Below, piece by piece: positions 7,699 through 56,756 of a DNA stretch of 64,000 nucleotides. Under the pieces are notes generated by a model. It was not told where the DNA came from and searched no databases. It worked only from the letters and a program-made list of their open reading frames with translations. Each line of letters starts with the position of its first letter. Positions within the stretch are counted from its first letter, which is position 1. The stretch lies in the NCBI RefSeq assembly GCF_000027125.1, contig NC_017626.1, one strand, 5' to 3'. The position numbers and the translations under genes were made by a program. Source of the stretch: Escherichia coli 042. Its GTDB lineage: Bacteria; Pseudomonadota; Gammaproteobacteria; Enterobacterales; Enterobacteriaceae.

Positions 7699-10317
7699 TC
7701 ATTGTTGAGCCAAAGCCTGATCCGATGGTTGTGCCGTTTCGCTCCGCTCCGGGCGGCGCGGAATAAACGATACAACCCAGGAAACCAGAGAAGTCAGCAC
7801 ACGGAATATGCCCTTCACCGAAGAAGGCGCAAACTCCGCCAGATGGCGGTAGCCACGGAAGCCGAGCTTCAGAATATCCAGCAGACTTTCCAGCGGCTTA
7901 TCTTCCGGGTAGCTGTCCTGCCAGAGCGCCCATGTATCCGCACGGGCAAACGTACACTGCACAAAATCGATATGTTGCTGGGTGGTGAGCGGCATTAATT
8001 TCAGCCCAACTTCATTACCCATCACGCGCGCCACCTGGGTGGGGAAGACGTATTCCTGCTGACCGCGTTTAAGCAACAGATTCACTTTCTGCCCTTCCAG
8101 AATCTGCGCCTGACCGTTGATCTTGATCCCCAAACCACCGTCGGAGAAATCCTGAACGGTACACGAGAAGAGGTGACCATCTTCGCGGGCAATTGCCGCG
8201 GGCATCGTCATCTCCACGCGGTGCGATCGGCGTACCTGTTTGCTTTCTACCGATACCGCAACTGCGCCGCCAAGAACAATCAGGTTGTAGAATACCCACA
8301 CCATACTGACGACCACGGTGAGCATCTCGGTTGGCGGGCCATAGAAGTAGCGCCAGATGCCTACCGCAACGCCCACCAGGTTGAGCAGAACAAGGAAGAT
8401 GTAGGGCCGCGAGATCACCCAGTCGACGTACTCTTCTTCCACCAGTCCACCTTTGGCGGTAACGTTAAATTTGCCTTTGTGCGGGTTAATCAGCGCCACC
8501 AGCGTCGGTGGTGCGATATACCACGCCAGCACCGTTTCGTAGATTTCACTCCAGAAAGAGTGGCGATATTTGCCCTGGATCTTCGAGTTGGTCAGGCTGG
8601 CATGAATCATATGCGGCAGCACGAACAGGGCGATCATCAACGCTGGCGCATAGATGATGTAGGCATGAAGCAGTAGGAACGCCAGCGGCGCAGTCAGGAA
8701 GATCAGCCGTGGAATGCCCGACAAGAAGTGGAACATGGCGTTGACGTAACATAGCCGCTGAGCAAACTTCAGCCCTTTACCGGTGAGCGGGTTATCGAGA
8801 CGGAAGATTTGCACCATCCCGCGCGCCCAGCGAATACGCTGACCGATATGCGCCGACAGACTTTCGGTCGCCAGCCCCGCCGCCTGCGGAATACGCATAT
8901 ACGCGGAGGTATAGCCACGACGGTGCAAACGCAGAGAAGTATGCGCATCTTCAGTCACGGTTTCGACAGCAATGCCGCCAATTTCATCCAGCGGCTTACG
9001 GCGAATCACCGCACAGGAACCGCAGAAGAAAGTGGCGTCCCACATATCGTTGCCATCCTGCACCAGACCATAGAACAGCGTGCCTTCGTTCGGTGTTTTA
9101 CGGAAACGTCCCAGGTTGCGTTCAAACGGGTCCGGTGAGAAGAAGTGGTGCGGCGTCTGCATCATCGCCAGTTGTTTTTCTTTCAGGAACCAGCCCATGG
9201 TCATTTGCAGGAACGATCGCGTTGGTACGTGGTCGCAGTCGAAAATCGACACGAACTCGCCTTTGGCATATTTCAGCGCATTGTTGATGTTGCCCGCTTT
9301 CGCATGTTCATGAGTGGTACGGGCGATATATTTCACCCCCACGTTTTGCGCAAACTGGCGAAACTCTTCCCTGCCGCCGTCATCAAGGATCCAGATGTTC
9401 AGCTTGTCTTTCGGCCAGTCGATACCCAGCGAGGCGTAAATGGTATTTTTCACCACGTTGAGATCTTCGTTGTAAGTCGGGACAAAGATATCCACCGACG
9501 GCCACAACGACATATCTTTCGGCAATGGCACCGGCTGACGATTCAGCGGCCATACTACCTGGAAGTAGCCGAGCACCAGCACAATCCACGCGTACGTTTC
9601 GGCGAACAGCAGAATAAGCCCGCACACCAGGCTGACCGGATCGTCCCAGTTCAGCGTAGAGGTGTAGCGCCACCAGATATAACGGCAAGAAACGGTCAGC
9701 GACAGCACAATCAACATTAGCGCCGAGAAGCGCCCCGGCATCCGCCGTACGATCAGCGCTACCCCCCACAGCAGCATCAGGAAGATAAACTGCGCCAGCG
9801 GGTTAAACGGCTGAGTAACGCAGATTAACGCCAGAATCAGCGAGAAGGTGACGATGATACCGAGGATCAACCGCCGCGCCCCGGCACTCAAATGGCCGAG
9901 CTCTTTTTTCTCATCAAGATGCTGTGTTTTATGGCTAACGCGCTCAGGCAGCTCGTTCATCCATTGATGGTAACGTCCACGAATATTTTGCAGACCTGAA
10001 AATGCCCGCCTGCGCGGTTTCGGCGTTTCTTTGCGCGATGCACCGATCAGTAACCAGCATGTTTGAATGAGATAACGGACCGGATCCAGCGGACGCGGAC
10101 GCGAGGCGTTGATATGCGGATACAGGTTTTTATGTTCTGCGCGAATACGCTGCCAGCGCGGGTGCTCCAGCGGAATAAAAATCCAGGCCAGGATCAACCA
10201 AAAACAGCCGAGCGTCGCGCTGAAAGCCGACGCGCCATGACGACGATAATCGCGATAACGCCCGATAAGCCGCGCGTTGACCGGCGGGATAAGCAACCAC
10301 CGGGTCAGGATACTCAT
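7699..10317 (-). CDS. bcsA: cellulose synthase catalytic subunit BcsA (GT2 + PilZ), 872 aa
   Basis: ORF track 7699..10317; 872 aa membrane glycosyltransferase with C-terminal PilZ-type region. Confidence 0.95.
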   Translation of the reverse strand: MSILTRWLLIPPVNARLIGRYRDYRRHGASAFSATLGCFWLILAWIFIPLEHPRWQRIRAEHKNLYPHINASRPRPLDPVRYLIQTCWLLIGASRKETPKPRRRAFSGLQNIRGRYHQWMNELPERVSHKTQHLDEKKELGHLSAGARRLILGIIVTFSLILALICVTQPFNPLAQFIFLMLLWGVALIVRRMPGRFSALMLIVLSLTVSCRYIWWRYTSTLNWDDPVSLVCGLILLFAETYAWIVLVLGYFQVVWPLNRQPVPLPKDMSLWPSVDIFVPTYNEDLNVVKNTIYASLGIDWPKDKLNIWILDDGGREEFRQFAQNVGVKYIARTTHEHAKAGNINNALKYAKGEFVSIFDCDHVPTRSFLQMTMGWFLKEKQLAMMQTPHHFFSPDPFERNLGRFRKTPNEGTLFYGLVQDGNDMWDATFFCGSCAVIRRKPLDEIGGIAVETVTEDAHTSLRLHRRGYTSAYMRIPQAAGLATESLSAHIGQRIRWARGMVQIFRLDNPLTGKGLKFAQRLCYVNAMFHFLSGIPRLIFLTAPLAFLLLHAYIIYAPALMIALFVLPHMIHASLTNSKIQGKYRHSFWSEIYETVLAWYIAPPTLVALINPHKGKFNVTAKGGLVEEEYVDWVISRPYIFLVLLNLVGVAVGIWRYFYGPPTEMLTVVVSMVWVFYNLIVLGGAVAVSVESKQVRRSHRVEMTMPAAIAREDGHLFSCTVQDFSDGGLGIKINGQAQILEGQKVNLLLKRGQQEYVFPTQVARVMGNEVGLKLMPLTTQQHIDFVQCTFARADTWALWQDSYPEDKPLESLLDILKLGFRGYRHLAEFAPSSVKGIFRVLTSLVSWVVSFIPRRPERSETAQPSDQALAQQ

Positions 10318-11066
10318 GATTTACTCCCGACTGGCGTTTTCAGCCCGGAATAGTTCAACAGGCACCAGTTAGCCAGCGTCAGTATCTCTTCAGCGGCCAG
10401 CGCATCACTGCGATATTCACCGACTGGTTGCTTAGCCGCCAGGCATTCAGCCATCGCTTCATCACGATGAATGAGCATTGGCAGTAATCGGCGCTGGCTT
10501 TGCAACCAAAGCTGGTAAATATCGTCCTGAACTTGACTGCCGATACGGAAGTCATTAATCAAAATATGCGCGCCATCCGGCAGCGCCTGCTGATGCAGCC
10601 GGATATGGCAGTTGGCATCCACATTGACGATTGCCAGCGAGTGATCGCACAAACTCAGCAGCTGGTGGGTTATCTGCGAGGAATCACGCGGTAAGTCGAT
10701 TAAAATCCACTGGTAACGCCCGCTGGCTTTTAGTTGCTGTAAGCCGGAGCAAATATCGCTCAGCCGGGTTTGCCAGTGCTGTGGATTTTCTTGTTCTTCA
10801 ATGGATAACTGACCAAAAGGCAGCAAATCGAGCTGCGAGGTATAGCGCAACCCGGCGTCACGCCAGTCCTGGTCATCCAGCATAGCTCTGGCCCAGCCCT
10901 GACGGTGGGTAAAATCAACGTTAAATGACAGGCGCAACAAGTTGTCCGGGCAGGCATCGACCACCAGGACATTTTCTCCCAACATTTGTAATGACCAGGC
11001 TAATGCGGCGGTGATGGTTGTTGTCCCCACGCCTCCCCGCACCCCCTGCAATCCCAGTACGGCCAT
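10314..11066 (-). CDS. bcsQ: BcsQ (YhjQ), ParA/MinD-family ATPase of the cellulose secretion system, 250 aa, intact reading frame
   Basis: ORF track 10314..11066; translation MAVLGLQGVRGGVGTTTIT...; codon 6 is TTG (Leu) by hand translation, so the ORF is uninterrupted; ATGA overlap with bcsA start. Confidence 0.9.
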   Translation of the reverse strand: MAVLGLQGVRGGVGTTTITAALAWSLQMLGENVLVVDACPDNLLRLSFNVDFTHRQGWARAMLDDQDWRDAGLRYTSQLDLLPFGQLSIEEQENPQHWQTRLSDICSGLQQLKASGRYQWILIDLPRDSSQITHQLLSLCDHSLAIVNVDANCHIRLHQQALPDGAHILINDFRIGSQVQDDIYQLWLQSQRRLLPMLIHRDEAMAECLAAKQPVGEYRSDALAAEEILTLANWCLLNYSGLKTPVGSKS

Positions 11067-11077
11067 TCACCAATCCC

Positions 11078-11266
11078 CTACTTTTGTTGCGCAAACTCTG
11101 CCAGCAACGGCCAGCGTTTTAATGCCGCGGCCAACTGTTCGCGTTGGGAAATATCGGCATAATCAATATCAGGCAGTGAAAATGCCTGCTTTAACGCCAA
11201 AATATCATTCTGGAAGATATAGCCTATCGCGGGATCAGGCAGAGTATCTGGTTCATTGTTATTCAT
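11078..11266 (-). CDS. bcsR: BcsR (YhjR), small cellulose-biosynthesis protein, 62 aa
   Basis: ORF track 11078..11308; start placed at ATG 11264-11266 giving MNNNEPDTLPDPAIGYIF... Confidence 0.8.
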   Translation of the reverse strand: MNNNEPDTLPDPAIGYIFQNDILALKQAFSLPDIDYADISQREQLAAALKRWPLLAEFAQQK

Positions 11267-11537
11267 TTGCTTGATCCCTATGAAATAACCGTACCGTTCA
11301 TGAGACAATTCTAACCGTGAGCATTTCGCCGGTTTATTGTTTACGGCGAGACGGGAATTTGCTCACTTTTTGACTTTCCGTTACGCAACAAAAAAAGTTA
11401 AAAACGAAAAGACTAAAATCACACGTCTTGTGACCTGCTAAATTGATTCACATGCTAAATCTGATAAGTTTTAATTTCAATGGTAGGTTTATTTCTTAGC
11501 TTTCGCTAGTAAACTGATAATCAGACAAAATGATGAC

Positions 11538-13109
11538 ATGAGGGACATTGTGGACCCTGTATTCTCTATCGGTATCTCATCATTATGGGATGAGCTGCGA
11601 CATATGCCAGCAGGCGGCGTCTGGTGGTTTAACGTCGATCGCCATGAAGATGCTATCAGTCTGGCGAATCAAACAATTGCATCCCAGGCTGAAACCGCAC
11701 ACGTCGCGGTCATTAGCATGGACAGCGATCCGGCGAAAATCTTTCAATTAGATGATTCTCAAGGACCGGAAAAAATAAAATTATTTTCAATGCTAAATCA
11801 TGAAAAAGGTCTATACTATTTGGCCCGTGATTTGCAGTGTTCTATTGATCCCCATAATTACCTTTTTATTCTTGTTTGCGCAAATAACGCATGGCAAAAC
11901 ATTCCTGCCGAGCGGCTTCGCTCATGGTTGGATAAAATGAATAAATGGAGCAGGTTAAACCATTGTTCGCTTTTGGTAATTAATCCCGGAAATAATAACG
12001 ATAAACAATTTTCATTGTTGCTTGAGGAATACCGTTCACTTTTTGGTCTTGCCAGTTTGCGTTTTCAGGGCGACCAACATTTGCTGGATATTGCCTTCTG
12101 GTGCAACGAAAAAGGGGTTAGCGCCCGTCAGCAGCTTAGCGTTCAGCAACAAAATGGTATCTGGACATTAGTTCAAAGCGAAGAGGCGGAGATCCAACCA
12201 CGCAGCGACGAAAAACGCATTCTGAGTAATGTTGCTGTACTGGAAGGTGCGCCGCCGCTATCAGAACACTGGCAACTGTTCAACAATAACGAAGTCCTGT
12301 TCAATGAAGCCCGTACCGCTCAGGCGGCGACGGTGGTCTTTTCTTTACAACAAAATGCGCAAATCGAGCCACTGGCCCGCAGCATTCATACTCTGCGTCG
12401 CCAGCGCGGTAGTGCGATGAAAATCCTCGTACGGGAAAATACCGCTAGCCTGCGCGCCACCGATGAACGTTTGTTATTGGCCTGCGGTGCAAATATGGTT
12501 ATCCCATGGAATGCCCCACTCTCCCGCTGTCTGACGATGATCGAAAGCGTGCAAGGGCAGAAGTTTAGTCGCTATGTGCCGGAAGATATCACTACCTTGC
12601 TGTCAATGACCCAGCCGCTCAAACTGCGTGGTTTCCAGAAGTGGGATGTGTTCTGTAATGCCGTCAACAACATGATGAATAACCCTCTATTACCTGCCCA
12701 CGGTAAAGGCGTTCTGGTTGCCCTACGTCCGGTACCGGGTATCCGCGTTGAGCAAGCCCTGACGCTGTGTCGCCCTAACCGCACCGGCGATATCATGACT
12801 ATTGGCGGTAATCGGCTGGTGCTGTTTCTCTCATTCTGTCGGATTAACGATCTGGATACCGCGTTGAATCATATTTTCCCATTGCCGACTGGCGACATTT
12901 TCTCAAACCGTATGGTCTGGTTTGAAGATGATCAAATCAGTGCCGAGCTGGTGCAGATGCGCCTGCTTGCCCCAGAACAATGGGGCATGCCGCTGCCTTT
13001 AACGCAAAATTCTAAACCGGTCATTAATGCCGAGCACGATGGTCGCCACTGGCGACGAATACCAGAACCAATGCGACTGTTAGATGATGCTGTGGAGCGC
13101 TCATCATGA
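11538..13109 (+). CDS. bcsE: BcsE (YhjS), c-di-GMP-binding cellulose secretion regulator, 523 aa
   Basis: ORF track 11538..13109, divergent from bcsRQABZC. Confidence 0.9.
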
Positions 13110-13297
13110 TGACCATCAGCGATATCATTGAAATTATTGTCGTTTGCGCACTGATATTTTTCCCGCTGGGCTATCTGGCGCGGCACTCTTTGCGACGCAT
13201 TCGCGACACCTTACGTTTGTTCTTTGCTAAACCTCGTTATGTTAAACCGGCCGGGACGTTACGCCGCACGGAAAAAGCCAGGGCAACCAAAAAATGA
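13106..13297 (+). CDS. bcsF: BcsF (YhjT), small membrane protein, 63 aa
   Basis: ORF track 13106..13297; ATGA overlap with bcsE stop; hydrophobic N-terminus. Confidence 0.85.
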
Positions 13298-14973
13298 CTC
13301 AATTTACGCAAAATACCGCCATGCCTTCTTCCCTCTGGCAATACTGGCGCGGCCTTTCCGGCTGGAACTTCTATTTTCTGGTTAAGTTCGGCCTGTTGTG
13401 GGCGGGATATCTTAACTTCCATCCGCTCCTCAATCTGGTGTTTGCCGCGTTTCTGCTGATGCCCATTCCGCGCTACAGCCTGCATCGCTTACGCCACTGG
13501 ATTGCCCTGCCGATCGGCTTTGCTTTGTTCTGGCATGACACCTGGTTGCCTGGCCCGGAAAGCATAATGAGCCAGGGTTCGCAGGTGGCGGGGTTCAGTA
13601 CCGATTATTTAATCGACCTTGTCACACGCTTTATTAACTGGCAGATGATTGGGGCCATTTTTGTTTTATTAGTGGCCTGGTTATTCCTGTCACAATGGAT
13701 TCGCATTACCGTTTTTGTGGTTGCCATTCTGCTATGGCTGAACGTACTTACCCTGGCGGGACCAAGTTTCTCCTTGTGGCCAGCCGGTCAACCGACGACC
13801 ACTGTAACAACGACGGGTGGCAACGCAGCGGCAACCGTTGCGGCGACGGGTGGCGCACCGGTAGTGGGTGATATGCCCGCACAAACTGCACCGCCAACAA
13901 CGGCGAACCTTAACGCCTGGCTGAATAATTTCTATAACGCGGAGGCGAAACGTAAATCGACCTTCCCGTCTTCGCTGCCCGCTGATGCTCAACCATTTGA
14001 ACTACTGGTGATTAATATCTGTTCGCTTTCCTGGTCGGATATTGAAGCCGCCGGGTTGATGTCGCATCCGCTGTGGTCGCATTTCGATATTGAGTTCAAG
14101 AACTTTAACTCCGCCACCTCCTACAGTGGCCCGGCGGCGATCCGTTTACTGCGCGCCAGCTGCGGGCAGACTTCGCACACTAATCTGTATCAACCGGCAA
14201 ATAATGACTGCTATCTGTTTGATAACCTGTCGAAACTGGGCTTTACCCAGCACCTGATGATGGGACATAACGGCCAGTTCGGCGGTTTTTTGAAAGAAGT
14301 TCGCGAAAATGGCGGCATGCAGACCGAATTGATGGATCAAACAAATCTGCCGATTATTTTGCTGGGCTTTGATGGTTCGCCGGTTTATGACGATACCGCC
14401 GTGCTTAACCGCTGGCTGGACGTTACCGAAAAAGATAAAAACAGCCGTAGTGCCACGTTCTACAACACGCTTCCACTGCATGACGGCAACCATTATCCGG
14501 GCGTCAGCAAAACAGCGGATTACAAAGCGCGGGCGCAGAAATTCTTTGATGAACTGGACGCCTTCTTTACTGAACTGGAGAAATCGGGTCGTAAAGTGAT
14601 GGTGGTCGTGGTGCCGGAACACGGCGGCGCGCTGAAGGGCGACAGAATGCAGGTATCTGGCCTACGTGATATCCCTAGCCCGTCTATCACAGACGTCCCC
14701 GTTGGGGTGAAATTCTTCGGCATGAAGGCACCACATCAGGGGGCACCGATTGTCATCGACCAACCGAGCAGCTTCCTGGCTATCTCCGATCTGGTGGTTC
14801 GCGTTCTTGATGGCAAGATTTTCTCCGAAGACAATGTTGACTGGAAAAAACTCACCAGTGGGTTGCCACAAACAGCACCGGTCTCCGAGAACTCAAATGC
14901 AGTAGTTATTCAATACCAGGATAAACCGTACGTTCGCCTGAACGGCGGCGACTGGGTGCCTTACCCGCAATAA
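13294..14973 (+). CDS. bcsG: BcsG (YhjU), membrane phosphoethanolamine transferase for pEtN-cellulose, 559 aa
   Basis: ORF track 13294..14973; N-terminal TM segments, central Thr/Ala/Pro-rich linker, C-terminal sulfatase-like domain. Confidence 0.95.
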
Positions 14974-14978
14974 GAACG

Positions 14979-15010
14979 AAAAAGGCCGCAGAGTTTCACC
15001 CCTGCGGCCT
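14979..15010 (-). terminator. rho-independent terminator hairpin of first ldr copy (also downstream of bcsG)
   Basis: Inverted repeat ggccgcag...ctgcggcc followed on the minus strand by a T-run; same element repeats in every LDR unit. Confidence 0.5.
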
Positions 15011-15059
15011 GATCCGGGCGCAAATTGCCATTACGGCAGCCTGACGCCCGCATGACACG

Positions 15060-15167
15060 TTACTTCCGCTTATTCAGCGAGTTCACGATCAGACTGGCAA
15101 GAATGCCAGCAATGACCGGAGCCGCTAAATCATGCCAGAAGGCCATGCCCAGTTCTGCGAGCGTCAT
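15060..15167 (-). CDS. ldrD: Ldr type I toxin peptide, copy 1 (35 aa: MTLAELGMAFWHDLAAPVIAGILASLIVNSLNKRK)
   Basis: C-terminal 35 codons of ORF 15060..15302; ATG at 15165-15167; matches LdrD family small hydrophobic toxin. Confidence 0.85.
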   Translation of the reverse strand: MTLAELGMAFWHDLAAPVIAGILASLIVNSLNKRK

Positions 15168-15215
15168 ATAGCCGCCTCTGTTGTAATGACAACGTTTCGC
15201 GGCTATTCTTGAGTT

Positions 15216-15282
15216 GTTTGGGTTCAAGATTAGCCCCCGTGATGTTGTCAGGTGCATACCTGCAACGTGCGGGGGTTTTCTC
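15216..15282 (+). ncRNA. rdlD: Rdl antisense RNA (antitoxin), copy 1; coordinates approximate
   Basis: Plus-strand candidate promoter ttgtaa-N17-tattct at 15181-15209, transcript ending at hairpin cccccgt...acgtgcgggggttttct (~15271-15282); antisense to the ldr mRNA leader. Confidence 0.4.
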
Positions 15283-15542
15283 TCTCCAGCAACCAATGCC
15301 ACCAGGGATTAAGCCCCCGCAACATTGCGCCTCACCGGAACCCTTCCGGCTTGCCGCTGATTCTACGGCCATTTTTGTTCGTCGAAATCCATCACTTCTT
15401 CACTCTGTGCTGCGCATTCCGCAGAATATTATCCGCTTGCAGCCGTTGCATTTTTCTTACGAAAAAGGCCGCAGAGTTTCACCTCTGCGGCCTGGTCCGG
15501 GCGCAAATTGCCATTACGGCAGCCTGACGCCCGTCTGACACG

Positions 15543-15650
15543 TTACTTCCGCTTATTCAGCCAGTTCACGATCATGCTGGCAAGAATGCCAGCAATGACC
15601 GGAGCCGCTAAATCATGCCAGAAGGCCATGCCCAGCTCTGCGAGCGTCAT
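15543..15650 (-). CDS. ldrD: Ldr type I toxin peptide, copy 2 (35 aa, ...AGILASMIVNWLNKRK)
   Basis: Hand translation; ATG at 15648-15650, stop 15543-15545; absent from ORF track because the extended ORF is under 60 aa. Confidence 0.8.
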   Translation of the reverse strand: MTLAELGMAFWHDLAAPVIAGILASMIVNWLNKRK

Positions 15651-15698
15651 ATAGCCGCCAGTGTTGTAATGACAACGTTTCGCGGCTATTCTTGAGTT

Positions 15699-15765
15699 GT
15701 GTAGGTTCAAGAATGGCCCCCGTCATATTGTCAGGTGAATACCTGCAACGTGCGGGGGTTTTCTC
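15699..15765 (+). ncRNA. rdlD: Rdl antisense RNA, copy 2; placed by 483-bp periodicity
   Basis: Same offset from ldr stop as copy 1; homologous sequence with the same terminator hairpin. Confidence 0.35.
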
Positions 15766-16025
15766 TCTCCAGCAACCAATGCCACCAGGGATTAAGCCCC
15801 CGCAACATTGCGCCTCACCGGAACCCTTCCGGCTTGCCGCTGATTCTACGACTGTTTTTCTGTTCCGAAATCCATCACTTCTTCACTCTGTGCTGCGCAT
15901 TCCGCAGAATATTATCCGCTTGCAGCCGTTGCATTTTTCTTACGAAAAAGGCCGCAGAGTTTTATCCCTGCGGCCTGATCCGGGCGCAAATTGCCATTAC
16001 GGCAGCCTGACGCCCGTCTGACACG

Positions 16026-16133
16026 TTACTTCTGCTTGTTCAGCCAGTTCACGATCATGCTGGCAAGAATGCCAGCAATGACCGGAGCCGCTAAATCGTG
16101 CCAGAAGGCCATGCCCAGCTCTGCGAGCGTCAT
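16026..16133 (-). CDS. ldrD: Ldr type I toxin peptide, copy 3 (35 aa, ...MIVNWLNKQK)
   Basis: C-terminal 35 codons of ORF 16026..16268. Confidence 0.85.
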   Translation of the reverse strand: MTLAELGMAFWHDLAAPVIAGILASMIVNWLNKQK

Positions 16134-16181
16134 ATAGCCGCCTCTGTTGTAATGACAACGTTTCGCGGCTATTCTTGAGTT

Positions 16182-16248
16182 GTGTAGGTTCAAGAATGGC
16201 CCCCGTGATGTTGTCAGGTGCATACCTGCAACGTGCGGGGGTTTTCTC
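16182..16248 (+). ncRNA. rdlD: Rdl antisense RNA, copy 3; placed by periodicity
   Basis: Same offset as copy 1. Confidence 0.35.
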
Positions 16249-16508
16249 TCTCCAGCAACCAATGCCACCAGGGATTAAGCCCCCGCAACATTGCGCCTCA
16301 CCGGAACCCTTCCGGCTTGCCGCTGATTCTACGACTGTTTTTCTGTTCCGAAATCCATCACTTCTTCACTCTGTGCTGCGCATTCCGCAGAATATTATCC
16401 GCTTGCAGCCGTTGCATTTTTCTTACGAAAAAGGCCGCAGAGTTTCACCTCTGCGGCCTGGTCCGGGCGCAAATTGCCATTACGGCAGCCTGACGCCCGT
16501 CTGACACG

Positions 16509-16616
16509 TTACTTCCGCTTGTTCAGCCAGTTCACGATCATGCTGGCAAGAATGCCAGCAATGACCGGAGCCGCTAAATCATGCCAGAAGGCCATGCCCA
16601 GTTCTGCGAGCGTCAT
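16509..16616 (-). CDS. ldrD: Ldr type I toxin peptide, copy 4 (35 aa, ...MIVNWLNKRK)
   Basis: C-terminal 35 codons of ORF 16509..16751. Confidence 0.85.
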   Translation of the reverse strand: MTLAELGMAFWHDLAAPVIAGILASMIVNWLNKRK

Positions 16617-16664
16617 ATAGCCGCCTGAGTTGTAATGACAACGTTTCGCGGCTATTCTTGAATG

Positions 16665-16731
16665 GTCTAGATGCAAGAATGGCCCCCGTGGTGTTGTCAG
16701 GTGCATACCTGCAACGTGCGGGGGTTTTCTC
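16665..16731 (+). ncRNA. rdlD: Rdl antisense RNA, copy 4; placed by periodicity
   Basis: Same offset as copy 1. Confidence 0.35.
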
Positions 16732-16991
16732 TCTCCAGCAACCAATGCCACCAGGGATTAAGCCCCCGCAACATTGCGCCTCACCGGAACCCTTCCGGCT
16801 TGCCGCTGATTCTACGGCCATTTTTGTTCGTCGAAATCCATCACTTCTTCACTCTGTGCTGCGCATTCCGCAGAATATTATCCGCTTGCAGCCGTTGCAT
16901 TTTTCTTACGAAAAAGGCCGCAGAGTTTTATCCCTGCGGCCTGATCCGGGCGCAAATTGCCATTACGGCAGCCTGACGCCCGTCTGACACG

Positions 16992-17099
16992 TTACTTCTG
17001 CTTGTTCAGCCAGTTCACGATCATGCTGGCAAGAATGCCAGCAATGACCGGAGCCGCTAAATCGTGCCAGAAGGCCATGCCCAGCTCTGCGAGCGTCAT
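16992..17099 (-). CDS. ldrD: Ldr type I toxin peptide, copy 5 (35 aa, ...MIVNWLNKQK)
   Basis: C-terminal 35 codons of ORF 16992..17267. Confidence 0.85.
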   Translation of the reverse strand: MTLAELGMAFWHDLAAPVIAGILASMIVNWLNKQK

Positions 17100-17147
17100 A
17101 TAGCCGCCTCTGTTGTAATGACAACGTTTCGCGGCTATTCTTGAGTT

Positions 17148-17214
17148 GTGTAGGTTCAAGAATGGCCCCCGTGATGTTGTCAGGTGCATACCTGCAACGT
17201 GCGGGGGTTTTCTC
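17148..17214 (+). ncRNA. rdlD: Rdl antisense RNA, copy 5; placed by periodicity
   Basis: Same offset as copy 1. Confidence 0.35.
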
Positions 17215-17574
17215 TCTCCAGCAACCAATGCCACCAGGGATAAAGCCCCCGCAACATTGCGCCTCACCGGAACCTTTCCGGCTTGCCGCTGATTCTACGA
17301 TTGCTTTTTACCGTCAGCACCCGGCAATCTTCCTCATTGCGCGATGCCTTCCAGCTTAATTTCTTTATTTGCAATAGTTGCAGTTCATATCCGGGCTGAC
17401 TCCAGACTGGTAGTGAAATGCGCAATTTTGTAGAATTGCGCCTCCTCGCGACCTCCCCAGTGAATCTGTTGCCTCATTTTTTACATACTGCGTATTCGAC
17501 TTCTCCACCTGTTGCGCAAGAGAAACTGGGTTTATTCATTTTTGCGAGGCCGACTTCTTTCTGGACAGGACTTT

Positions 17575-18846
17575 ATGCAGCACAACACACTACCGAAACA
17601 CGATCAGAAATTGCCGTTTACACGCTACGACTTCGGCTGGGTTTTATTATGCATAGGCATGGCGATTGGTGCCGGAACCGTGCTGATGCCAGTACAAATT
17701 GGCTTGAAGGGAATTTGGGTATTTATTACCGCAGCGATCATTGCTTATCCTGCCACCTGGGTAGTGCAGGACATTTATTTAAAAACCCTTTCTGAAAGCG
17801 ATTCCTGTAATGACTACACCGATATTATCAGTCATTACCTGGGGAAGAACTGGGGAATTTTCCTCGGGGTTATCTACTTTTTGATGATTATCCACGGGAT
17901 TTTTATCTACTCTCTCTCCGTGGTTTTCGACAGCGCCTCGTACCTGAAAACCTTCGGTTTAACCGATGCCGATCTTTCACAATCTCTACTTTATAAAGTC
18001 GCCATTTTCGCCGTACTGGTGGCGATTGCGTCTGGTGGTGAACGATTACTGTTTAAGATTTCCGGGCCAATGGTGGTGGTCAAAGTAGGGATTATTGTCG
18101 TGTTCGGTTTTGCGATGATCCCGCACTGGAATTTCGCCAATATAACCGCCTTCCCGCAAGCCTCCGTCTTTTTCCGCGATGTCCTGCTTACCATTCCATT
18201 TTGCTTCTTTTCTGCAGTATTTATTCAGGTACTTAACCCAATGAATATTGCCTATCGTAAACGGGAAGCAGATAAAGTACTGGCAACCCGGCTCGCGCTG
18301 CGTACCCACCGAATTAGTTATATCACGCTCATCGCGGTGATCCTGTTTTTTGCCTTTTCGTTTACCTTCTCAATTAGCCACGAAGAAGCCGTTTCTGCCT
18401 TTGAACAAAATATCTCGGCACTGGCACTGGCCGCGCAGGTGATCCCTGGACATATCATTCATATCACCTCGACGGTGCTGAATATCTTTGCCGTACTGAC
18501 CGCATTCTTTGGCATTTATCTCGGTTTCCACGAGGCCATTAAAGGCATTATTCTCAATCTGTTAAGCCGAATCATTGATACCAAGAAAATTAACTCACGC
18601 GTGCTGACTCTGGCGATCTGCGCTTTTATCGTCATTACGTTGACGATTTGGGTTTCGTTTCGTGTATCGGTGCTGGTGTTCTTTCAGTTGGGAAGCCCGT
18701 TATATGGCATTGTGTCGTGCCTCATTCCATTTTTCCTGATCTATAAAGTCGCACAACTGGAAAAACTTCGCGGGTTTAAAACCTGGCTGATTCTGCTGTA
18801 CGGCATTTTGCTATGCTTGTCGCCACTGTTGAAGCTGATTGAGTAA
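17575..18846 (+). CDS. yhjV: YhjV, putative amino-acid permease (HAAAP family), 423 aa
   Basis: ORF track 17512..18846; start placed at ATG 17575 ([13 protein letters not shown]...); polytopic membrane protein. Confidence 0.85.
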
Positions 18847-22974: not shown

Positions 22975-23072
<98 letters not shown>

Positions 23073-25267: not shown

Positions 25268-25356
25268 AAAATGTGTGGTGTGTAGGTCGAATAAGGCGGT
25301 CGCGCCGCATCCGACAATGGGCCGGCACATTTGCCTGATGCGACGCTGGCGCGTCT
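25268..25356. repeat. REP/BIME element (two REP palindromes) upstream of the proK-proximal repeats
   Basis: ggtcgaataaggcggtcgcgccgcatccgaca and gcctgatgcgacgctggcgcgtcttatcaggcctac. Confidence 0.65.
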
Positions 25357-25794
25357 TATCAGGCCTACGTCGAATCGAACCTCCCTGCCCCCGGAAGTTC
25401 TCATCCTCTTCAGGCCGCAGAAAGCAAAAAACCAGCCCGTAGGCTGGTTTTTCTAAATTGGTCGGTGATAGAGGATTACTCGCCACTTCGTGGCTCGCCC
25501 TGCGGGCCGTTGCTGGCGCAACGTTCTCTCGCTTCGCTCGAGTCGAATCTCCCTGCCCCCGGAGGTTCTCATCCTCATAGGCTACAAATGCAAAAAAGCC
25601 TGCTCGCTGAGCAGGCTTTTCGAATTTGGTCGGTGCCAGAGGATTACTCGCCACTTCGTGGCTCGCCCTGCGGGCCGTTGCTGGCGCAACGTTCTCTCGC
25701 TTCGCTCGAGTCGAACCTCCCTGCCCCCGGAGGTTCTCATCCTCATGGGCTACAAATGCAAAAAAGCCTGCTCGCTGAGCAGGCTTTTCGAATT
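25357..25794. repeat. tandem degenerate repeats (~92 + 166 + 168 bp) downstream of proK, each with a terminator-like hairpin, a T-arm-like GGTTCGA motif and a copy of the last ~19 nt of tRNA-Pro
   Basis: tggtcggtg(a/c)(t/c)agaggatt occurs at ~25449, ~25617 and 25795 (the last is the real tRNA 3' end); the intervening sequence is about 97-98% identical between the two full units. Confidence 0.8.
25762..25790 (-). terminator. rho-independent terminator just downstream of proK
   Basis: Minus-strand gcctgctcagcgagcaggc followed by a T-run (tttttt), 5 bp after the tRNA 3' end. Confidence 0.6.
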
Positions 25795-25871
<77 letters not shown>

Positions 25872-37029: not shown

Positions 37030-37227
37030 TGTTGCATCACCCGCCAATGCGTGGCTTAATGCACATCAACGGTTTGACGTACAGACCATTAAAGCAGTGT
37101 AGTAAGGCAAGTCCCTTCAAGAGTTATCGTTGATACCCCTCGTAGTGCACATTCCTTTAACGCTTCAAAATCTGTAAAGCACGCCATATCGCCGAAAGGC
37201 ACACTTAATTATTAAAGGTAATACACT
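37030..37227 (+). promoter_or_regulatory. cspA promoter (AT-rich UP element, -35 ttgcat, -10 cttaat) and long 5' UTR with cold-box region
   Basis: ttgcatcacccgccaatgcgtggcttaatgcacatcaacggtttgacgtacagacc... about 160 nt upstream of the cspA ATG, consistent with the known long cspA leader. Confidence 0.6.
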
Positions 37228-37440
37228 ATGTCCGGTAAAATGACTGGTATCGTAAAATGGTTCAACGCTGACAAAGGCTTCGGCTTCATCACTCCTGACG
37301 ATGGCTCTAAAGACGTGTTCGTACACTTCTCTGCTATCCAGAACGATGGTTACAAATCTCTGGACGAAGGTCAGAAAGTGTCCTTCACCATCGAAAGCGG
37401 CGCTAAAGGCCCGGCAGCTGGCAACGTAACCAGCCTGTAA
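37228..37440 (+). CDS. cspA: major cold-shock protein CspA, 70 aa
   Basis: ORF track; [23 protein letters not shown]... with RNP motifs. Confidence 0.97.
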
Positions 37441-37465
37441 TCTCTGCTTAAAAGCACAGAATCTA

Positions 37466-37497
37466 AGATCCCTGCCATTTGGCGGGGATTTTTTTAT
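37466..37497 (+). terminator. cspA rho-independent terminator
   Basis: ccctgccatttggcgggg hairpin followed by ttttttt. Confidence 0.6.
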
Positions 37498-37627: not shown

Positions 37628-37780
37628 TTACTCTTTCAATTTGCAGGCTAAAAACGCCGCCAGCTCATAACTCTCCTGTTTAATATGCAATTCACACAGT
37701 GAATCTCTTATCATCCAGGTGAAAAATAAAAGCGTGAAACAAATCACTATTAAAGAAAGTAATCTATATTTCTGCGGCAT
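37628..37780 (-). CDS. hokA: HokA type I toxin (Hok/Gef family), 50 aa, intact
   Basis: C-terminal 50 codons of ORF 37628..37840: MPQKYRLLSLIVICFTLLFFTWMIRDSLCELHIKQESYELAAFLACKLKE. Confidence 0.85.
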   Translation of the reverse strand: MPQKYRLLSLIVICFTLLFFTWMIRDSLCELHIKQESYELAAFLACKLKE

Positions 37781-37840
37781 TCCCAGCCCCCTGTGTTGAT
37801 TTCCAACGAGTAAGAGGCTAACCTTATGGTGTCTATGCAT
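37628..37840 (-). CDS. mokA: MokA, overlapping reading frame that translationally couples hokA, 70 aa
   Basis: ORF track 37628..37840, co-terminal with hokA as in hok/mok/sok loci. Confidence 0.6.
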   Translation of the reverse strand: MHRHHKVSLLLVGNQHRGLGMPQKYRLLSLIVICFTLLFFTWMIRDSLCELHIKQESYELAAFLACKLKE

Positions 37841-37886
37841 AGAGGGGCCTCACTTTGATTTATAGTCAGGTGGGGCTTTTCTCTGT
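37822..37886 (+). ncRNA. sokA: putative SokA antisense RNA (antitoxin); coordinates approximate
   Basis: Plus-strand region antisense to the mokA start/leader, ending at hairpin gcctcac...gtggggc followed by ttttctct. Confidence 0.3.
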
Positions 37887-38060
37887 CTGCCTTTCGGTGA
37901 ATACCTGAGACAAACAGTCTCAAGCACCCGCAGCTATTCTAGCTTAATAAGTTCGTTTCTTCTCCTTGATATAATCCTAAAAAAATCTCATAAAATTAAT
38001 ATATGAGACAATCTTTATTCAGCAGAAGATTATTAAAGGTTGCTCTATTATTTAGCGATA

Positions 38061-56658: not shown

Positions 56659-56756
56659 GCCTGATGCGCTACGCTTATCAGGCCTACATGATTTCTGCAA
56701 TATATTGAATTTGGTAGAATTTGTAGGCCGGATAAGGCGTTTTAGCCGCATCCGGC
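56659..56756. repeat. REP/BIME element between avtA and ysaA
   Basis: gcctgatgcgctacgcttatcaggcctac and gtaggccggataaggcgttttagccgcatccggc. Confidence 0.7.

Follow-up and report, generated by a model that had tools for sequence, protein, structure and literature searches.

The five ldr copies between bcsG and yhjV in Escherichia coli 042 probably represent a five-unit tandem expansion of the ldrD/rdlD type I toxin–antitoxin locus, in which natural alleles are carried by a recombining array and the unit at one edge escapes homogenisation. The window refers here to the whole stretch of 64,000 nucleotides that was analysed (contig NC_017626.1). The variants are all common natural alleles, catalogued previously, of the known Ldr/Rdl system, and the finding is real and ordinary. 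In the proposed mechanism, each 483-bp unit would be expressed as a complete module, with a minus-strand long-leader mRNA coding for a 35-aa membrane toxin and a 66-nt plus-strand Rdl RNA, which is complementary to the leader 49–114 nt upstream of the start codon and would repress toxin synthesis. The differences between units would be standing natural alleles arising from point mutation, shuffled and partly homogenised as the units exchange sequence by unequal crossing-over and gene conversion.

Anatomy of the LDR-D array

Tandem Repeats Finder reported a single array with a period of 483, 95% matches and zero indels (Table 1). The bcsG–yhjV interval in which it lies is the K-12 ldrD/rdlD locus, the LDR-D type I toxin–antitoxin locus of Kawano et al. 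2002, as cited in PMC4147584. The array resembles that locus in chromosomal site, toxin family, unit ends and an antisense RNA of 64–66 nt that faces the 5′ leader, but K-12 has one unit there and the window has five in tandem. Every unit holds one minus-strand 35-aa Ldr ORF, one plus-strand rdlD RNA and two terminator hairpins, and the array thus consists of LDR elements, that is, direct repeats of about 500 bp with one ldr and one rdl in each. It is a textbook type I toxin–antitoxin repeat, and all of its peptide alleles have named RefSeq entries. Duplications of ldr loci that are specific to particular lineages have been reported (PMC2887945), and the K-12 LDR-A/B/C modules are likewise complete ldr/rdl units in tandem, which share a single intergenic region and differ slightly from copy to copy (PMC4147584). 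However, the latter occupy another locus and belong to another subgroup (the LdrB group, as opposed to the LdrD group of the window; PMC2887945), and their peptides end in ...AAIV(S/G)WWRNRK and have about 21 of 35 residues in common with window copy 2.

Table 1. Features of the LDR-D array and its surroundings in the window.
Feature	Position	Strand	Description	Evidence
bcsG	13294..14973	+	flanking gene	
LDR-D tandem array	14976..17309	.	4.8 units x 483 bp	Tandem Repeats Finder
ldr terminator, unit 1	14983..15010	-	intrinsic terminator hairpin of ldr mRNA	terminator scan
ldr terminators, units 2-5	15466..15493, 15949..15976, 16432..16459, 16915..16942	-	equivalent hairpins	terminator scan
ldr copy 1, bcsG-proximal	15060..15167	-	ends ...ASLIVNSLNKRK (L26, S30, R34)	WP_000170736.1; Pfam PF13940 83.4 bits
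ldr copy 2	15543..15650	-	ends ...ASMIVNWLNKRK	WP_001295224.1; PF13940 93.2 bits
ldr copy 3	16026..16133	-	ends ...ASMIVNWLNKQK	WP_000170743.1; PF13940 89.7 bits
ldr copy 4	16509..16616	-	ends ...ASMIVNWLNKRK	ORF and peptide
ldr copy 5, yhjV-proximal	16992..17099	-	ends ...ASMIVNWLNKQK	ORF and peptide
rdl 1	15216..15281	+	5′ tail class A (GTTTGGGTTCAAGATTAG)	Rfam RF01813 90.4 bits, model positions 1-66 of 66
rdl 2	15699..15764	+	tail class B (GTGTAGGTTCAAGAATGG); three changes in upper stem/loop	Rfam 78.3 bits
rdl 3	16182..16247	+	tail class B; identical to rdl 5	Rfam 83.8 bits
rdl 4	16665..16730	+	tail class C (GTCTAGATGCAAGAATGG)	Rfam 81.8 bits
rdl 5	17148..17213	+	tail class B; identical to rdl 3	Rfam 83.8 bits
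Leader ORF, unit 1	15248..15325	-	25 codons, MLRGLNPWWHWLLERENPRTLQVCT	preceded by GGTGAGG; 3′ third under Rdl
Leader ORF, further copies	15731..15808, 16214..16291, 16697..16774, 17180..17257	-	one in each remaining unit	
Putative -10 hexamer TAGAAT	15362..15367	-	unit 1 ldr promoter	read from the unit alignment
yhjV	17575..18846	+	flanking gene	

Ten terminators were found against 3.0 ± 1.8 in shuffled sequences, and the ldr and rdl terminators are intact in every unit. No sigma-70-like promoter was detected by a consensus scan of 14950–17450. Next to the putative −10 hexamer of unit 1, the presumed spacer and −35 side (15368–15382) varies by unit, being shared by units 1 and 4, by units 2 and 3, and by unit 5 and K-12; the promoter side of copy 5 is unique flank, in common with the K-12 unit. 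The Shine–Dalgarno sequence also varies, from GAGGCGG in unit 1, which is the best, to CTGGCGG in copy 2, which is the weakest, and in predicted folds of the full ldr mRNA the GGCGG part of the ribosome-binding site is paired in every unit, and the units do not clearly differ in this respect. A link between Rdl tail class and Shine–Dalgarno type, considered as a sign of an intramolecular ldr mRNA helix, was dropped, as tail B occurs with two Shine–Dalgarno types.

Toxin alleles and the bcsG-proximal copy

The translated ORFs bear out the original prediction that the five Ldr peptides are not identical, that copy 1 has a distinct C-terminus and that copies 2–5 carry Trp30 with Arg or Gln at position 34. 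The full peptide of copy 1 is MTLAELGMAFWHDLAAPVIAGILASLIVNSLNKRK. Residues 1–25 are invariant across all five, and the seven variable nucleotide sites of the ldr coding sequence comprise three non-synonymous (M26L, W30S and R34Q) and four synonymous ones. The three distinct peptides matched the Ldr_toxin profile PF13940 over positions 1–35 of 35, with 83.4–93.2 bits against a cutoff of 27, and all five contain the PXXXG motif (P17-V-I-A-G21), which has been described within the transmembrane segment of the Ldr/Fst superfamily (PMC7472228). A basic C-terminal cluster is present as NKRK in copies 1, 2 and 4 and as NKQK in copies 3 and 5; R34Q, which had been passed over earlier, takes away one of the three C-terminal positive charges. 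Compared with K-12 LdrD, 32–34 of 35 residues are identical; K-12 LdrD has Phe3 where all five window peptides have Leu3, Gln34 distinguishes copies 3 and 5, and three residues differ from copy 1 (L3F, L26M and S30W; K-12 structure PDB 5LBJ). Toxicity upon overproduction, seen as growth arrest, nucleoid condensation or ATP loss, has been shown only for K-12 LdrD and LdrA (PMC8309996, PMC12643268). An 80-aa in-frame extension of the ORF over copy 1 (15060–15302) is rejected as a gene; a stop codon breaks its frame in unit 2.

All of these alleles recur widely. Each of the three exact peptides is present on about 1000 public contigs (at least 1000 for the copy-1 peptide), and unit 1 has matches of 100% identity over 483 bp in other genomes and of at least 99% in 173 records. 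Among 5,426 complete E. coli genomes, the L26/S30 (L/S) haplotype, followed by means of a 32-mer of copy 1, occurs in 336, at one place each. The M/W type of window units 2–5 occurs in 661 genomes at 930 places, the L/W haplotype in 566 genomes at 787 places and the K-12-type M/W in 4,662 genomes at 9,352 places. The L/S allele was the bcsG-proximal unit in all ten loci inspected, with arrays of 2–5 units, in a sample that was picked through the L/S 32-mer and is neither random nor phylogenetically independent. It adjoins six different BcsG protein alleles in these ten loci and is therefore not a recent clonal accident.

The signature of the Ldr/Fst superfamily is a conserved Trp, placed after the transmembrane helix and before the charged C-terminus (PMC2887945, PMC7472228), and position 30 is Trp in 40 of 42 distinct representatives of the Ldr family. 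Copies 2–5 carry this signature residue and copy 1, with Ser30, does not, but it is still classed as an Ldr because it matches the Pfam profile. The signature is not absolute, since Fst of pAD1 has Val at the Trp position and is yet toxic (PMC7472228). It had been suggested that both the Met-to-Leu and the Trp-to-Ser changes of copy 1 could alter toxicity. Judged from family conservation, W30S is a plausible functional change, as it loses the conserved Trp, and it probably weakens interfacial anchoring. On the Wimley–White interfacial scale, replacement of Trp by Ser makes partitioning into the interface about 2 kcal/mol less favourable. A functional effect of M26L, on the other hand, is not supported, as position 26 is freely variable within the family (M, L, A, I or V among the 42 representatives) and alleles that combine L26 with W30 are common in their own right.

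It is possible, although we consider it unlikely, that the toxin of copy 1 is attenuated or in decay and that W30S is a loss of function drifting neutrally at the edge, beyond repair by conversion. The loss of the signature Trp and its interface cost would fit such a decay, as would the Pfam score of copy 1, the lowest of the three alleles (83.4 vs 93.2 bits), and the status of L/S as a minority allele, found in 6% of genomes and never amplified. However, each of the 11 arrays inspected has an intact L/S ORF, and unit 1 has the best Shine–Dalgarno sequence, an intact terminator and the highest-scoring Rdl. The toxicity of Fst with Val moreover argues that the Trp is non-essential, and the six neighbouring BcsG alleles argue against an accident of one clone. 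The bcsG-proximal copy represents a widespread natural Ser substitution at the residue that defines the Ldr/Fst superfamily, and it offers a ready-made test of the role of this Trp, because the published work on LdrD includes no mutagenesis, which PMC8309996 asks for.

Rdl antisense RNAs and their pairing

Five full-length matches to RF01813 were found 49 nt upstream of the ldr starts, with 78.3–90.4 bits against a gathering score of 50. In the predicted folds (minimum free energy −28.8 to −32.3 kcal/mol), nucleotides 1–11 are unpaired in all five, and in every Rdl a terminator-like hairpin likewise precedes a run of T. The five units carry four distinct Rdl RNAs with three tail classes, and the differences between units sit mostly in the unpaired 5′ tail; the tail of K-12 RdlD, GTCTAGAGTCAAGATTAG, differs from all five. 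The original prediction reported a difference in the flanking Rdl regions, gtttgggttcaagattag (15216–15233) versus gtgtaggttcaagaatgg (15699–15716), and this difference is real, but it lies in nucleotides 1–18 of Rdl itself and not in flanking sequence.

Within a unit, polymorphism is greatest in the 5′ tail. In a MAFFT alignment of 39 units, 8 of 18 tail sites were variable compared with 53 of 367 elsewhere (Fisher p = 0.003); this alignment replaced an ungapped comparison of the 39 units, which gave p = 0.19 and was distorted by 1-nt indels. This concentration of variable sites in the tail is not what neutral drift alone would readily lead one to expect, and it hints at selection on pairing; most of these sites are high-frequency polymorphisms. 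Predicted duplexes of each Rdl with its cognate leader reach −139 to −144 kcal/mol, compared with −108 to −130 kcal/mol for non-cognate pairs, which have 3–7 mismatches per 66 nt. For the tail duplex alone, cognate pairs have predicted energies of −35 to −38 kcal/mol and pairs across tail classes −16 to −26 kcal/mol, and the tail class may influence which Rdl is the quickest to pair. Being so polymorphic, the tail is a concrete place to seek cognate discrimination.

These observations could be taken to mean functional diversification, in which toxins of unequal potency would each be preferentially controlled by their own Rdl via the variable 5′ tail and loop. The enrichment of polymorphic sites in the tail and the stronger cognate tail duplexes are in line with such an arrangement, and W30S at the signature residue and the altered C-terminal charge of R34Q would provide the unequal toxins. 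The Sib/Ibs pairs are a further point in its favour: they are likewise multiple cis-encoded antisense RNA–toxin pairs per genome, in which, according to PMC2943612, short recognition domains limit repression by Sib RNAs to cognate ibs targets. By analogy, they could serve as a model for what Rdl tail classes do, but toxin and RNA are unrelated to Ldr/Rdl, Sib spans the whole ibs ORF and Rdl only the leader, and cognate discrimination is demonstrated for Sib and is an analogy for Rdl. Diversification nevertheless appears doubtful. Rdl3 is identical to Rdl5 and Rdl2 has the same 5′ tail, which leaves at most three to four classes for five units, and full non-cognate duplexes are predicted to stay very stable. 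Tail types and toxin alleles are also shuffled independently between strains; for example, at locus L003 tail A accompanies the L/W toxin in unit 2 and the L/S toxin of unit 1 has another tail. Furthermore, repression of the cognate ldr is known for K-12 RdlD/ldrD only (PMC4147584, PMC8309996). The earlier suggestion that toxin–antitoxin pairing may be unit-specific is thus not upheld, because Rdl3 equals Rdl5 and Rdl2 shares their tail.

A stronger proposal, that the array consists of distinct modules with an attenuated or altered Trp-less toxin at the edge and a hypervariable Rdl 5′ tail that would determine specificity and define three classes without cross-repression, seems improbable. If it were true, array composition would tune the amount of toxin escaping repression, and a Trp-less edge toxin would be maintained in about 6% of E. 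coli.

In addition, a 25-codon ORF is located in the leader of all five units. It is a candidate for the leader ORF ldrX that has been hypothesized for Ldr/Rdl, as quoted in PMC4147584, where a hok/sok-like action through this ORF is proposed. The hok/sok system with mok likewise has a long structured toxin mRNA and an antisense RNA whose site of action lies upstream of the ribosome-binding site for the toxin, but it has no sequence relationship to ldr/rdl, and translational coupling for ldr is hypothetical. Of the 39 units examined, 6 have a leader ORF that is either disrupted or fused with ldr.

Proposed allele exchange and array length

Alignment of the units confirmed real differences between them, with the qualification that units 3 and 5 are identical over the first 334 nt, so that only four of the units and three of the peptides are distinct. 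Segments are shared in a mosaic manner, units 3 and 5 being alike on the left, and units 2 and 3 as well as units 1 and 4 on the right, while the K-12 unit combines the promoter side of unit 5 with the 3′ side of unit 1. Such a pattern is consistent with the recombining array proposed above, in which the bcsG-proximal edge unit would take part in exchange least and would therefore have kept its private L26/S30 haplotype, which would not have spread to the inner units. This escape from homogenisation is suggested by the position of the unit; alternatively, the L/S allele could have been kept by selection.

At the bcsG–yhjV locus, 1–5 units are found per array, and five-unit arrays are common. 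The exact five-unit arrangement of the window was not found in the 5,426 complete genomes; with a 3,001-base query (window 14700–17700), no full-length match exceeded 97.5%, as arrays of three units are split into two pieces in the alignment. Through the unique flank, BEC1-S17-ESBL-09 was identified as the closest strain; it has four units, base-for-base identical to the shared window units. The window array becomes the array of this strain after removal of one 483-nt unit, with a breakpoint anywhere in a 225-nt identical tract.

That the differences, or the presence of a fifth copy, reflect read or assembly errors in the repeat, as the absence of the exact arrangement, the four units of the closest strain and the repetition of unit 5 by unit 3 over 334 nt might suggest, is very improbable, as all alleles and the entire unit 1 recur exactly in independent complete genomes, the four units common to BEC1-S17-ESBL-09 match base for base, unit 3 is a clean mosaic of neighbouring-unit segments as recombination would produce, and arrays of five units are common at the locus. 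The original prediction had named such errors as what would refute it; recurrence in hundreds of complete genomes rules them out for the alleles, though not for the copy number of five. One unit has been gained or lost between near-identical strains, indicating that array length changes easily, which matters when toxin–antitoxin genes are counted from short-read assemblies.

Array anatomy and toxin alleles

With its standing allelic variation, the LDR tandem array of the window is an expanded ldrD/rdlD type I toxin-antitoxin locus of an ordinary kind that is already catalogued. The bcsG-yhjV intergenic region of K-12 holds one ldrD/rdlD pair, and lineage-specific duplication of ldr loci has already been reported (PMC2887945). 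Every one of the five units (units 1 to 5, numbered from bcsG towards yhjV) carries a 35-codon minus-strand ORF, ldr, with a full-length match to Pfam PF13940 (Ldr_toxin; 83-93 bits, cutoff 27), and a full-length plus-strand match to the rdlD antitoxin family, Rfam RF01813 (78-90 bits, gathering score 50), located 49 nt past the ldr start codon. Terminators are also present in every unit, namely a strong hairpin for the ldr mRNA and one for Rdl, the antisense antitoxin RNA. No base differs between units 3 and 5 in the first 334 nt of each, and the array therefore comprises four distinct units, three peptides and four Rdl RNAs.

Features of the LDR array and other RNA elements in the window
Feature	Position	Strand	Remarks
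LDR tandem array	14976-17309		period 483 bp, 4.8 copies, 95% matches, indels 0
bcsG	13294-14973	plus	3' end adjoins array
yhjV	17575-18846	plus	other array neighbour
ldr Shine-Dalgarno region	15168-15180		equivalents in units 2-5
First 18 nt of Rdl	15216-15233, 15699-15716
25-codon leader ORF (MLRGLNPWWHWLLERENPRTLQVCT)	15248-15325	minus	equivalents in units 2-5; good ribosome-binding site, GGTGAGG
Segments upstream of inferred -10	15368-15382, 15851-15865, 16334-16348, 16817-16831, 17300-17314
Copies of 225-nt tract	15739-15963, 16222-16446		one unit apart
ES036 small-RNA matches	23009-23051, 56680-56722
Two RtT RNA repeats	25285-25871		beside tRNA gene; naRNA4 match nearby
cspA thermoregulator (RF01766)	37068-37495	plus
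sok, type I antitoxin RNA (Rfam RF01794, 120 bits)	37778-37929	minus	adjoins cspA thermoregulator

The original prediction held that the five Ldr peptides differ and that toxin-antitoxin pairing may be unit-specific; its observation was correct, while the interpretation is supported in part only. The ORF translations gave exactly the stated differences, as copy 1 ends in ...ASLIVNSLNKRK, copies 2 and 4 in ...ASMIVNWLNKRK and copies 3 and 5 in ...ASMIVNWLNKQK, with residues 1-25 invariant. The ldr coding sequence varies at seven sites, of which four are synonymous and three change the residue (ATG/CTG at codon 26, TGG/TCG at codon 30 and CGG/CAG at codon 34). The last of these, R34Q in copies 3 and 5, which had been left unweighed, leaves the C-terminus with two positive charges instead of three.

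As for the alleles, read error, which had been named as a possible refutation, is excluded by their exact recurrence among 5,426 complete E. coli genomes. In counts made with 32-nt queries and a 28-nt exact-word search, where a match requires agreement at the diagnostic bases, the L26/S30 haplotype of copy 1 was found in 336 genomes at 336 places, always one per genome, and the M26/W30 haplotype of window copies 2-5 in 661 genomes (930 places). The L26/W30 haplotype was present in 566 genomes (787 places) and the K-12-type M26/W30 haplotype in 4,662 (9,352 places). Moreover, all three peptides are exact public protein entries named Ldr family toxin, each on at least 1000 contigs, and several further complete genomes match all 483 bp of unit 1 at 100% identity (173 records at 99% or more).

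The Ldr/Fst superfamily is defined by a highly conserved Trp between the transmembrane helix and a charged-residue cluster (PMC2887945; PMC7472228), which is W30 in Ldr. In a family alignment of matches from a representative library of 1.84 billion proteins, 42 distinct sequences cover position 30, with W in 40 and R in two, so that W30S departs from the signature site of the family. At position 26 the aligned relatives carry M, L, A, I or V, and M26L is thus unremarkable. The commonness of L26/W30 suggests a path from M/W through L/W to L/S at positions 26/30. Fst of pAD1 has Val in place of Trp, yet is toxic (PMC7472228), and therefore the Trp is not essential; no mutagenesis of LdrD has been published (PMC8309996). 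Unit 1 otherwise looks fully functional; its ORF is unbroken in every array seen, its Shine-Dalgarno sequence (GAGGCGG) is the best of the variants, its terminator is intact and its Rdl scores highest of the five.

Edge position of the L/S allele and array dynamics

The L/S allele is the bcsG-proximal copy in 10 of 10 other genomes inspected, in arrays of 2, 3, 4 or 5 units and beside six different BcsG protein alleles, and this edge position fits its never occurring twice per genome. The units are mosaic, since unit 3 equals unit 5 on the terminator/CDS/rdl side, while on the promoter side unit 2 equals unit 3 and unit 1 equals unit 4; the K-12 single unit combines the promoter side of unit 5 with the 3' side of unit 1. 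Such a pattern would be expected from unequal crossing-over and gene conversion in a tandem array, and we infer that the terminal unit is the least homogenised.

Over the unique flank at 9000-14970, the window and E. coli strain BEC1-S17-ESBL-09 show 100% identity, and the window array minus one 483-nt unit equals the array of that strain base for base; a single homologous unequal-exchange event therefore separates two loci that are identical in all else. The breakpoint lies anywhere within an exactly repeated 225-nt tract (possible deletion starts 15739-15963), and recombination between the two tract copies would yield the four-unit array of BEC1-S17-ESBL-09.

Rdl variation and predicted pairing

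The two strings that had been quoted as flanking Rdl do differ between units, but they belong to Rdl and form its first 18 nt. Each Rdl, being encoded in cis, is fully complementary to its own leader, so that the mismatches it makes with the leader of another unit are simply the positions at which the two Rdl sequences differ (0 for Rdl3 vs Rdl5, otherwise 3, 4 or 7 of 66). Six of the ten variable sites among the five RNAs fall in these 18 nt, the 5' tail, of which nucleotides 1-11 are predicted to stay unpaired; the remaining four are distributed over a bulge, the loop and a single stem pair.

The tails form three classes (unit 1; units 2, 3 and 5; unit 4), and energies were predicted for tail-only duplexes (-35 to -38 kcal/mol for cognate or same-class pairs vs -16 to -26 for non-cognate or different-class pairs) and for full-length duplexes (-139 to -144 vs -108 to -130 kcal/mol). 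Full-length non-cognate duplexes are thus still predicted to be very stable, so that any discrimination would have to be kinetic. Since the cis-encoded Sib antitoxin RNAs of the Sib/Ibs systems are described (PMC2943612) as able to distinguish near-identical targets, class-specific repression by Rdl is possible by analogy.

Across 27 distinct units from 12 loci, a small and phylogenetically non-independent sample picked via the L/S allele, the tail is enriched in variable sites (8/18 vs 53/367 elsewhere; Fisher p=0.003), most of them high-frequency polymorphisms. Different strains combine toxin alleles and tail types differently, as tail A, the class of rdl 1, also accompanies an L/W toxin and another tail is found beside the L/S toxin, which argues against tight co-evolution of toxin and own antisense RNA. 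Two points go a little further than the textbook account, and neither would probably cause much surprise. They are this concentration of polymorphism in the tail, and the Ser in place of the signature Trp, which never exceeds one copy per genome and lies at the array edge in all ten loci inspected.

Expression signals and other RNA elements

The ldr Shine-Dalgarno region reads GAGGCGG in units 1, 3 and 5, CAGGCGG in unit 4 and K-12, and CTGGCGG in unit 2, and the copies may therefore be translated with different efficiency irrespective of the peptide that they encode. The segment immediately preceding the inferred ldr -10 hexamer (TAGAAT) exists in three versions (units 1 and 4; units 2 and 3; unit 5 and K-12), so that the five inferred promoters are not equivalent; the unit 5 version is unique flank outside the repeat.

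RdlD has been proposed to act through a leader ORF, ldrX, to which ldr would be translationally coupled (PMC4147584; PMC8309996). The 25-codon ORF, which lies in the ldr leader and ends within the Rdl-complementary region, may be the ldrX proposed by Gerdes and Wagner; all five units have it, as do 33 of the 39 units compared from 12 loci. In 484-bp-period units of related E. coli loci (unit 2 of L003, units 2 and 3 of L004, unit 2 of L010), a 1-nt insertion joins the reading frames of the leader ORF and ldr into an uninterrupted 88-codon ORF that terminates in the Ldr peptide; it could possibly be an N-terminally extended toxin or a means of inactivating the coupling.

Elsewhere in the window, the sok match is presumably the chromosomal hokA/sokA locus, and the second ES036 match barely exceeds the gathering score.
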